Of a DNA stretch of 39,792 nucleotides, positions 35,458 through 38,400 are shown in pieces. The first letter of the stretch is position 1; each line of letters starts with the position of its first letter. The position numbers were made by a program. This stretch comes from a virus (lineage: Duplodnaviria > Heunggongvirae > Uroviricota > Caudoviricetes), in the IMG/VR virus record IMGVR_UViG_2703718791_000008, positions 1 to 39,792 of that record. The stretch is one strand, 5' to 3'.

Positions 35458-38400
35458 TGACACGAAATAAACGTCCGACAAGCACAGCAGCCAATACCTA
35501 AAAACAATATTTTGCCGAATATTCAGTTCGTTATAAAGGTTAAGCATTGAGTATACCAACTGTCTCTCTATGGAATGAGATGGGGTTAATCCCCCCAATA
35601 GACGAGGCTGATCCTACAAGCCATACTCGTTCCCCATACAAAATGGATATAGTACGCTTTGTTAGTACTTTTTCGCTTAGCCCTGCAAGGATTAAAATCC
35701 TTAAGGGTTTTCTTAACTTTCGTGTTTCACTCACTCAAGCAGGGCTAGTTGAAGGTTTTCAGTGGGTAGATGGAAGCTTCACAGAACATATTGAACTTAT
35801 TGAAAAAAGGCCACCGAATGATGTCGATGTTGTGACCTTTTTTCAATTCAGTAATGGCGATAATGATGCAATCGTAATCGGTAGAAAGCCAGAGCTATTT
35901 GATCATGATTTTGTTAAGAAGGAGTTTTTCGTAGATTCCTACTTCCAAGAACTTAATCTACCAAGTCATGAGCTTGTTGAAATGACTGTATACTGGTACA
36001 GTATGTGGGCACATAGACGCGATCTGTCGTGGAAGGGATTTATCCAAATCCCGTTAAACCCACAACTTGATGTTGTGGCAATGACTATACTTAATTCGGC
36101 TACTACTGAGGGGGTCAAACAATGAATCGTAATGATTATGTTTTCGCTCTCAGTGAGCGCGAGCAAATAAGTAATCTATTAAAAAATATGCCAACAAGTC
36201 ATTCTATTAGCCGAAAAAGCTTAGAAGACCGTCTGGAGAAAGTTGAGCGATTAATTTCACAAGCTGACGTTCGAGAACATGAACCTACGCATGCTGTGTT
36301 AACTTTTAGAGGCCCAACAGTAGTTGGCACGCATGGCATTTCAGCAGTATTTGGAACAAAAGCTATATCTTGTTTTAATGATGCAATAGCTTACTTGGCA
36401 ACCTCTTTCAATGGCCCACTTCCTGCATCAGGCAAGATACCAAACATAGAAAATAATCATCTCATGATTACCGCGTCAGCCCGTGGTTCTTTCGGATTTG
36501 TACTTGAAGAGTTTAGACCTGATGCTCCTCTTGAATTCGATGAAGAAACCCCAGTAGCAAAAGCTATTAATAAGGCCAGAAAAATATTTCAGGCAAGCTT
36601 GGATAATGATGATGAAGAATTGTCTGATGCTATAGAAAACTTAGACTCTCGGGCCTTAGATAAAATCAGAGCATTCATTCATTATCTGCATGAAAATAAA
36701 ACAGTTTTTACACTTAAAAGCCAAGGTTTTAGCATCGTTTTTAGAGAGCCAAAACAGCTTGAAGCTGTATATCAACATCTCAGCAATGATAACATTCAGC
36801 AGGAAAAAATTATTGAGAACGTTATATTTTTGGGAACTCTTCCTAACAAGCGCCAATGTGAATTTATAGTTTTAGGTAACACTGATATCAGAACCGCTAG
36901 CATTGACAAAGCTGTAGATGACCCAGATATTATAAACAAGCACTTAGGAAGCGTTGCAACAGCCACGTTCCTGAAAAAAACTGTTGGTAAGGGCAAGCCC
37001 AGATACACTCTGGTTTCTCGACCTCAATGGGATATTAAATCAATCGATTAGAATGAGCCCCTTCAGCCCGGCCACCGCGCCGGGTTTTTACTGCCTGTCG
37101 CTCCCCACAAGCGAAGAAGCCGAACGCATCTCTTCAATACTGAAGGTTTACGTTCGGCCTCAATAATGCAAAAGCATTCAGCATAATGTCCAACTCCCCA
37201 GTCCGACATTGATGCTGTTTAACCAGAGCCTCCAAAAGGAAGCCCTTGTTAAGGTACACAATATTTGCGATGTAACCTTAGCGCGTCTGGTACATTTTTT
37301 CAAGCGGTTGTAGGGCTGCCGCTAATATGAGAAAACACAGATGTCTACATACAATTTGAATGGCCAATTCGATCGAGAAGTTCATGTGAATGCCTATGAA
37401 CGGATAAGGCATGGAAATCTTGAACATGTGTGTGAGCATTATCGCTCAAGGCCACATCGCTGATAATCAAATCTCAACCCGGCCTCAGCGCCGGGTTTTC
37501 TTTGCCTCACGCTCCCCCTCACCCAAGAACACATAACCAATTGTATTTATTTGAAAATTAATAGATACAACTCACTAAACATAGCAATTCAGATCTCTCG
37601 ATCACCTTCCCAATCCACACAACCATGCAAAAAATAAATCTATATAAAAAACATACAGATAACCATCTGCGGTGATAAATTATCTCTGGCGGTGTTGACA
37701 TGCATACCACTAGCGGTGATACTAAACACATCAGCAGGACGCTGGTAGCCAAACGGAACAGATTGGCAGGCACTTTAACATTGATGGGATTGTCCCGCCG
37801 AAATGCGGGAACCAAAGAGTAGTTGGCTTTGGGGTGACGTGAAGTGCAGCTGCACGACGGCAACCGGAAGATAAGCACCCGGCGCGTCACCGCCAAAGTC
37901 AATCATCGGAGGTCAACATGACAGTAGTCATTACATATCTGGCTGACGATAACGCCAGAAATCGCCGCAGAGCACGCAGACAGGCTCAACGTGAACAGGA
38001 AATGCAAGAGCAGCGACTGGCGCGAAAAATTGCGCTAAAGCTCTCTGGTTGCGTCAGAGCAGATAAAGCAGCATCACTCGGAAGCCTTCGCTGCAAGAAG
38101 GCAGAAGAAGTCGAGCGTAAACAGAACCGTATTTACTACCGCAAGCCACGCAGTGAAATGGGTGTGACTTGTGTTGGTCGCCAGAAAATGAAATTAGGCA
38201 GCAAACCACTTATTTGAGGTGATATATGACAATATCATGGAGCGTACCTTTTCCTGAATCAGAAACTGAACATGATGGAATGCCTGTTTTCTGGAGATTC
38301 CAGGCGACAGTTGAAGAAGATGGAATCAAAATATTCGCACTTCAATATATAGCTTTTCATCAGACAGAGCATTATGCATGGTTGGTTCCTGCGCATTGGA

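Follow-up and report, generated by a model that had tools for sequence, protein, structure and literature searches.

A two-gene cassette encoding a predicted nucleotidyltransferase in the rexAB slot of a lambda-type prophage: a candidate defence module

The rexAB pair of phage lambda is the first abortive-infection (Abi) system described and is still poorly understood; its historical home is the interval between cI and N of lambdoid phages, and RexA and RexB have been proposed to tune the switch of their own prophage or its exit from lysogeny. Nucleotidyltransferases (NTases) are known components of toxin-antitoxin (TA) systems, such as HEPN-MNT and AbiE/MenAT. The present study concerns a stretch of 39,792 nucleotides from a virus of the class Caudoviricetes (IMG/VR record IMGVR_UViG_2703718791_000008, positions 1 to 39,792; hereafter, the window), where two genes, designated A and B, stand 3' of a lambda-type cI gene. 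The analysis indicates that A-B is an NTase-containing two-gene conflict module with a partner protein of unknown fold, which is widespread and has been nominated computationally twice; on balance, the explanation that we lean towards is an NTase-based defence module of the Abi/TA type expressed in lysogens.

A hotspot of mosaic diversity, the cI-N interval has been described as holding rexAB and bstA, which are expressed from the strong promoter of the repressor (PMC8585504). BstA of Salmonella BTP1 and DS-34 (CI plus a hypothetical protein) are validated defence genes that share with A-B the place directly 3' of a prophage repressor and the possession of a terminator of their own; their proteins are unrelated to A and B, and BstA, unlike A-B, consists of one gene and has a DNA-based element for self-immunity.

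Replacement of rexAB

An earlier note on this DNA had placed an AT-richer two-gene operon in the slot of rexAB, immediately 3' of cI, and alignment to lambda bears this out. Homology to lambda DNA covers cII through cI, up to and including the final base of the cI stop codon (34000-35460, 93%), and restarts at 37476, which corresponds to lambda 35826, i.e., the rexB stop and the terminator tImm; since it ends at the cI stop and resumes at the rexB stop/tImm, rexA-rexB (1.4 kb) has been precisely replaced. The region contains the following features (aa, amino acids; ORF, open reading frame):

34673-34736: OR operators; OR1 is an exact lambda operator
34747-35460, + strand: lambda-type cI repressor gene, 5' of A-B; 237-aa ORF
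35461-35546, + strand: leader of 86 bp, left end of the cassette
35547-36125, + strand: gene A; TTG start, 192 aa
36122-36125, + strand: ATGA stop/start overlap of A and B, read from the sequence
36122-37051, + strand: gene B; 309 aa
37065-37089, + strand: intrinsic terminator, right end of the cassette; 8-bp GC stem and U5, -15.5 kcal/mol
37090-37475, no strand: extra 385-bp segment outside the cassette
37476-37497, + strand: second terminator, homologue of lambda tImm (the terminator after rexB); z-score -3.0
37661-37723, + strand: right border of the cI-to-N slot, with the OL operators (37661-37721) and pL (37695-37723)

The sizes of the two proteins and the overlap of their genes, as given in the earlier note, agree with the ORF coordinates, the sequence and the RefSeq annotation of Escherichia coli CE10, which contains the same two coding sequences and encodes proteins 100% identical to those of the window. 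Both genes are indeed AT-richer than their surroundings, the GC content being 0.406 for A and 0.384 for B versus 0.461 for cI and 0.457 for the window. Conservation in homologues of residues 4-11, which are encoded 5' of the first ATG (M12) and include a W9-N10 motif, makes the TTG start of A credible. Gene B is preceded by a strong Shine-Dalgarno sequence, GAGGGGG, and the ATGA overlap, judged from the sequence, couples the translation of A and B; an overlap or a gap of up to 9 nt between the two genes is usual in other loci.

A-B shares with RexA/RexB the slot between the cI stop and tImm, the orientation, the two-gene layout and the presumed co-transcription with cI; the likeness is one of location and not of homology. 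A BLASTP search did not reveal sequence similarity between the two pairs, the best match having an E-value of 1.2 over 72 aa. RexB is a membrane protein, whereas B has no transmembrane (TM) helices: the maximum KD19 hydropathy reaches 1.13 in A and 1.16 in B versus 2.39 in RexB, and no TM segment is present in either protein of the pair. In addition, A is a predicted NTase, which RexA is not.

The 86-bp leader between cI and A contains no + strand terminator, no consensus promoter detectable by a scan and no stable structure. The sole option for a separate A-B promoter in it, a TATAAA box with a poor -35 element and wrong spacing, was not called by the scan and was rejected. With neither a terminator nor a consensus promoter between cI and A, the most economical reading is transcription of cI-A-B as one unit from pRM/pRE, by analogy with rexAB; pRM and pRE are the presumed promoters, and A-B is likely co-transcribed with cI in lysogens. 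The view that the slot behind the repressor is a place for exclusion or Abi systems fits the hotspot literature and the diversity of repressors found in front of A-B (at least 10), and its companion claim, expression from pRM, is made likely by the missing cI-A terminator.

Predicted structure and conservation of A and B

The earlier note could not assign either protein to a family; this stands for B as far as Pfam is concerned, but not for A, which clearly matches the Pfam family DUF6932 (PF22014; 93.6 bits at a gathering threshold of 27 bits, E-value 2e-26, 141 of 142 profile positions) and has the fold of Pol-beta NTases according to modelling. A also matches phrog_9194. All 43 A homologues match DUF6932, and their alignment shows G76-S77, D92-x-D94 and D130 to be invariant; among the 74 unique A sequences from all fetched loci, including those of Archaea, G76, S77, D92, D94, K163 and G164 are present without exception and D130 in 72 of 73. 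The AlphaFold model of A is confident (pLDDT 91.7) and places the conserved residues on the canonical helix-strand-[GS turn]-helix-strand[DxD]...strand[D] core, with G76-S77, D92-x-D94 and D130 on the predicted β1-turn, β2 and β3, respectively. A thus carries the motif of the Pol-beta superfamily, hG[GS]...[DE]h[DE]h... followed by a third carboxylate, on an α-β-α-β-β core, and the predicted model is similar in fold to solved NTases. Searches with the sequence and its 43 relatives at permissive thresholds found no member of the A family that reached a classical NTase Pfam model, and structures of MenT or AbiEii were not among the top fold matches of A. Sequence searches of the PDB with A, as a single protein and as a profile, gave no genuine match: those of the A profile to designer-PPR entries proved to be an artefact of summing over repeats, since no single stretch passes. 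It is concluded from the modelled structure and the conserved residues that A is a divergent, minimal NTase of the Pol-beta type, catalytically competent in appearance, presumably active as an enzyme and nearest the MNT/ANT branch.

Protein B matches phrog_18731 only; no match was found in Pfam, NCBIfam or PADLOC (the latter at E-values up to 1), and neither single-protein nor profile searches revealed a sequence relative in the PDB. When 138 relatives of B and 43 of A were compared with Pfam under permissive thresholds, DUF6932 was the only consistent family. The AlphaFold model of B (pLDDT 86.3) comprises three regions, namely, an N-terminal helical hairpin, a central α/β region and a C-terminal five-stranded barrel (about 225-300). 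In the predicted model, the strand order of the barrel, β1-3/helix/β4-5, is that of the OB fold; fold comparison gave partial matches to SSB, PriB and the OB domain of LysRS, and no PDB match extending beyond this OB-like barrel. Judged from the model, nucleic-acid binding is a possible role of the OB-type domain. Conservation within B is highest at a β-hairpin turn with G122-S-F-G-F126 and E129, invariant in 76 of 76 unique sequences; S123 is the sole invariant polar residue across 138 diverse B representatives. An exhaustive profile search indicates that the B family consists of 1,466 representative clusters at E-values up to 1e-3 (608 at up to 1e-30), and the proteins of the top 150 clusters are nearly all stand-alone and about 300 aa long.

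The two genes are found together in every evaluable locus. In loci from assemblies and IMG/VR, A lies directly 5' of B on the same strand, overlapping it or within a few bases of it, in 46 of 46 cases; a scan of species-representative genomes with alignment A1 gave the same order and adjacency in 47/47 evaluable loci, two contigs too short to hold A being left out of the count. The total is 93/93 evaluable loci in Bacteria and Archaea, and the carriers include Gamma-, Beta- and Alphaproteobacteria, Desulfuromonadales, Planctomycetota, Lentisphaeria, Acidobacteriota, Cyanobacteria, Leptospira and methanogenic Archaea. The partners that were missed by sequence search (Proteus, Burkholderia, Bremerella) are full-length B homologues (hhalign probability 100%, E-values of 1e-52 to 1e-60). 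Over 33 loci, identity to the window copy of A closely tracks identity to the window copy of B (r = 0.97), and the ratio of non-synonymous to synonymous substitution rates (dN/dS), where dS is unsaturated, ranges from 0.06 to 0.16 in A and from 0.04 to 0.09 in B; the correlation and the purifying selection show that both are real, functional and co-inherited genes. Long-range identity is 27-30% for B versus 33-48% for A, i.e., B diverges faster. In two archaeal loci, from metagenome-assembled genomes of Methanogenium and Methanomicrobiales (L053, L054), B is 36-38% identical to E. coli B and the genes overlap by 4 nt; inter-domain transfer is suggested, since these copies are closer than many proteobacterial ones.

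Comparison with described NTase systems shows partial likeness only. Type VII HEPN-MNT TA systems differ in the partner: none of the 138 B members has a HEPN match in Pfam, no invariant His is available for the Rx4-6H motif, and B is a 309-aa protein with an OB-like barrel. AbiE/MenAT shares with A-B the character of a two-gene Abi/TA module containing an NTase; however, A has no match to DUF1814 (AbiEii/MenT), the NTase gene comes first, and it is preceded by a phage repressor instead of the antitoxin AbiEi/MenA. A-B does not combine a full-size CD-NTase with an effector carrying a known killing domain, as CBASS does, and B is not a transmembrane channel like HalA, the partner in Hailong.

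Mobility, genomic settings and earlier nominations

The boundaries of homology between cassettes are sharp. Homology to the window spans 35433-37096 (99.5%) in a locus with another, 245-aa repressor (L023), 35455-37089 (92%) in one with a 250-aa repressor (L025) and 35518-37089 (80%) in Salmonella; at the right end, homology to all other cassettes stops at 37088-37096. The mobile unit is, therefore, about 1.64 kb long and consists of the leader, A, B and the terminator (35461-37089).

In Enterobacterales, the gene directly 5' of A almost always encodes a CI-type repressor (HTH_3 with or without Peptidase_S24, or Phage_CI_repr), and at least 10 mutually unrelated kinds of repressor precede A-B in enterobacterial prophages. 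In Proteus/Providencia, a DUF3024 gene (phrog_3467) of 111-113 aa is located between an S24 repressor and A-B (L011, 4614-4949; L036, 5054-5395; L051, 5054-5395), indicating that the repressor slot can carry stacked cargo. Distant copies of A-B follow lysis cassettes (Rz, Rz1/LysC, lysozyme) or SRAP, HNH or antirepressor genes, or occupy non-phage sites. Two high-GC viral contigs of IMG/VR (L040, 4098-5264; L042, 4289-5221) have a protein with an SRAP (SOS-response-associated peptidase) domain, and no repressor, directly 5' of A. The repressor slot and the position after the lysis cassette are classic sites of morons expressed in lysogens.

Among the three nearest neighbours of A-B in 45 genome loci, no shared third gene was found; the neighbours in these loci include integrases, resolvases and VapE, and proteins of at least six bona fide defence families (type I methyltransferase, DpdF, Drt8, PsyrT, type IV restriction endonuclease and mad2). 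B homologues were also found on five plasmids or megaplasmids. Of 5,426 complete E. coli genomes, lambda-type cI is present in 618, rexAB in 99 and A-B in 8.

PADLOC had already listed relatives of the pair. A matches two PDC-M63A models (E-values 2.2e-10 and 1.5e-4), and five PDC-M63B models are matched by 8, 7, 4, 3 and 1 of the 138 B-family representatives (best E-value 2.2e-6); A-B, therefore, probably represents a divergent clade of PDC-M63, an unpublished PADLOC candidate that likewise consists of two adjacent genes and is likewise prophage-borne in E. coli NILS69. The B protein of the window is probably homologous to PDC-M63B but beyond the reach of its models, so that PADLOC would probably miss this locus. 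Eleven B-family representatives match PDC-M32A, another unpublished candidate (best E-value 6.7e-6), and B-like proteins may also occur with another partner or gene order. The PDC-x systems of PADLOC are unvalidated candidates (PMC11811056). The protein WP_001081279.1, identical to B of the window, is listed as a "Predicted novel defense gene" in Tables S5 and S10 of the DefensePredictor study (Science 2026, PMC13092281), with mean log-odds of 7.51 in one genome and 6.68 in a strain of the ECOR collection (PMC13092281). The pair has thus been nominated for defence by two unrelated computational routes: PADLOC works by guilt-by-association and DefensePredictor by protein-language-model scoring. 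A literature search found no mention of DUF6932, PF22014, the protein accessions or the PHROG identifiers in main texts.

The earlier note had called the pair the strongest candidate for a previously undescribed defence system. The family DUF6932, PDC-M63 and the presence of an identical B in DefensePredictor contradict "previously undescribed"; the candidate status itself is upheld by both nominations, but a deletion experiment with the related PDC-M63AB gave no sign of defence (see below). The logic of the slot and the status of a candidate hold, and the interpretation of the note as a whole is partly supported.

The right side of the slot is more complex than had been described. An intrinsic terminator does precede OL/pL, but it is not adjacent to them: the 385-bp segment and the second terminator intervene. 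The 385-bp segment (37090-37475) is missing from CE10 and from most other cassette carriers, L018-L024 among them. Positions 37106-37599 match O157:H7-type prophages at 93% identity; the counterpart there consists of non-coding DNA and ~60 bp from the 3' end of another cargo gene, of 173 aa (phrog_2602), located 3' of their cI. Judged from these alignments, 37090-37475 is probably the scar of an earlier cargo exchange. Two similar GC-hairpin terminators flank the segment, and the terminator looks like a recombination joint. The small RNA svsR of prophage NC-SV was ruled out as the source of the extra 385 bp, since svsR lies at the cI 3' end there, and an Rfam scan of 34300-38300 gave no match.

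Further downstream, pL has the box pattern TTGACA-17-GATACT (37695-37723). Homology to lambda DNA stops just past it, at 37742, and the antiterminator at 37918-38217 (phrog_271) is N-like but is not lambda N, which indicates a mosaic joint between pL and N despite the lambda-type immunity region. A 156-aa ORF directly 3' of the N-like gene (38226-38696, + strand; GC 0.34-0.40) matches phrog_1636 and is perhaps a further moron of the pL operon.

Possible function of the pair

The reading of A-B as a conflict module draws on its place in the rexAB slot, the obligate pairing, the mobility, the preference for repressor slots, the defence genes in its neighbourhood, the two defence predictions and the precedents of rexAB, bstA and DS-34. 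In the explanation favoured here, the cassette 35461-37089, which has taken the place of rexAB as cargo in the cI-N slot of a lambda-immunity prophage, is most likely transcribed with cI in lysogens. A and B would work as a complex in which B is the obligate soluble partner, and A would transfer a nucleotide either to B itself, with the invariant S123 as the candidate acceptor by analogy with type VII HEPN-MNT, or to nucleic acid held by the OB domain of B; phage infection would shift this transfer reaction and lead to the arrest of host or phage macromolecular synthesis. We infer the formation of the complex, the enzymatic activity, the acceptor and the anti-phage phenotype.

Several observations weigh against a defence role. 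A combined megablast and tblastn search found a B homologue in none of 50,697 isolated phages. No toxic or enzymatic domain can be recognised in B, and none of its invariant residues is a His, Lys or Asp. WP_001081279.1 is absent from Table S6 of the DefensePredictor study, which lists the 94 units assayed (PMC13092281). Deletion of PDC-M63AB from its native prophage in E. coli NILS69, the only experiment on a PDC-M63AB system, had no effect on defence against 10 virulent phages (10.1101/2024.12.20.629700). Finally, B is split or C-terminally truncated beside an intact A in L041 (6001-6890) and L026 (6001-6870), and A is frameshifted beside an intact B in L074 (5397-5983). Such natural disruptions in both directions indicate that neither protein looks unconditionally lethal, although sequencing or assembly errors are possible.

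The favoured explanation can be divided into three sub-models, and the shares given to them apply within it. In the first, to which a good third of the weight is assigned, A would nucleotidylate B as in type VII TA systems, S123 being the candidate acceptor. The nearest folds of A move a single nucleoside monophosphate onto a hydroxyl group, the gene order is NTase-first, and the loci with a broken B and an intact A fit as well; the frameshifted A beside an intact B in L074 does not. In the second, given somewhat under a third, B would be the sensor, which detects phage nucleic acid or protein and activates A, and A would modify RNA or tRNA, much as MenT/AbiEii do. The faster long-range divergence of B and the tolerance of both types of single-gene disruption agree with such a division of labour, but A does not belong to DUF1814 and its top fold matches do not include MenT or AbiEii. 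The remaining good third falls to a third sub-model, in which A would produce a ligand for B, or to something else; the lack of a TM segment or a known killing domain in B argues against ligand synthesis.

The same mobility and compactness allow the pair to be seen as a pure addiction (toxin-antitoxin) module, which would stabilise its host prophage or mobile element and have no role against other phages. Such a role agrees with a compact, translationally coupled cassette moving among prophages, plasmids and chromosomal sites beside integrases and resolvases, with the NTase as a known TA component and with the absence of a defence phenotype in the NILS69 deletion; however, disruptions of A only or B only (L041, L026, L074) are hard to square with an always-on toxin that needs neutralisation, and the defence predictions and the strong bias towards the repressor slot, which is highly expressed, fit defence at least equally well. 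TA and Abi functions can coexist; pure addiction is considered rather improbable.

Another conceivable role is signal production, where A would make a nucleotide or oligonucleotide second messenger and B would be its receptor or effector through the OB domain or the glycine-rich hairpin, by a logic similar to that of Hailong or CBASS. A is nearer MNT/ANT than CD-NTases and much smaller than the latter, and B has neither a TM segment nor a nuclease, TIR, patatin or other known killing domain, so this is a still less probable role than addiction.

A modulator of lysogeny or induction, i.e., a pair that tunes the switch of its own prophage or its exit from lysogeny and does not exclude other phages, would explain why A-B shares the operon of the repressor in most enterobacterial loci, and the OB-type domain could serve it by binding nucleic acid. 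However, the repressors in front of A-B are of at least 10 unrelated kinds, and the pair also follows lysis cassettes and occupies chromosomal sites outside phages, in Planctomycetota and methanogenic Archaea among others; with such varied repressors and non-phage sites, it cannot rely on one particular immunity system, which makes modulation of this kind quite unlikely. Least credible is a role in lysogenic conversion or anti-defence, with A as an ANT-like enzyme inactivating an antibiotic or toxin or with the pair neutralising a host immune signal, since A has only 192 aa and no ANT C-terminal domain, an obligate co-diverging 309-aa partner (93/93 loci; r = 0.97) is unparalleled in resistance enzymes, and expression in the lysogenic operon and non-phage sites speak against an anti-defence gene of lytic growth.

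Returning to the lysogen-expressed defence module, a more far-reaching form of it can be proposed, which is unlikely to be correct in full: A-B might be a new class of enzyme-regulated (type VII-like) abortive infection, in which A would nucleotidylate the hairpin serine of a new-fold effector that seizes nucleic acid with its OB domain, present in both Bacteria and Archaea and taken up time and again into the repressor operons of temperate phages.

The present analysis delivers a delimited natural cassette of 1.64 kb in a genetically tractable lambda-immunity context and singles out residues D92, D94 and D130 of A and S123 and E129 of B. A-B is a repressor-slot module whose enzyme half can be read, with a partner family of 1,466 clusters ranging from Proteobacteria to methanogens. 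If active, it would add a new type of partner to NTase-based immunity and would provide a tractable case of how a prophage escapes self-killing by its own repressor-linked Abi system.

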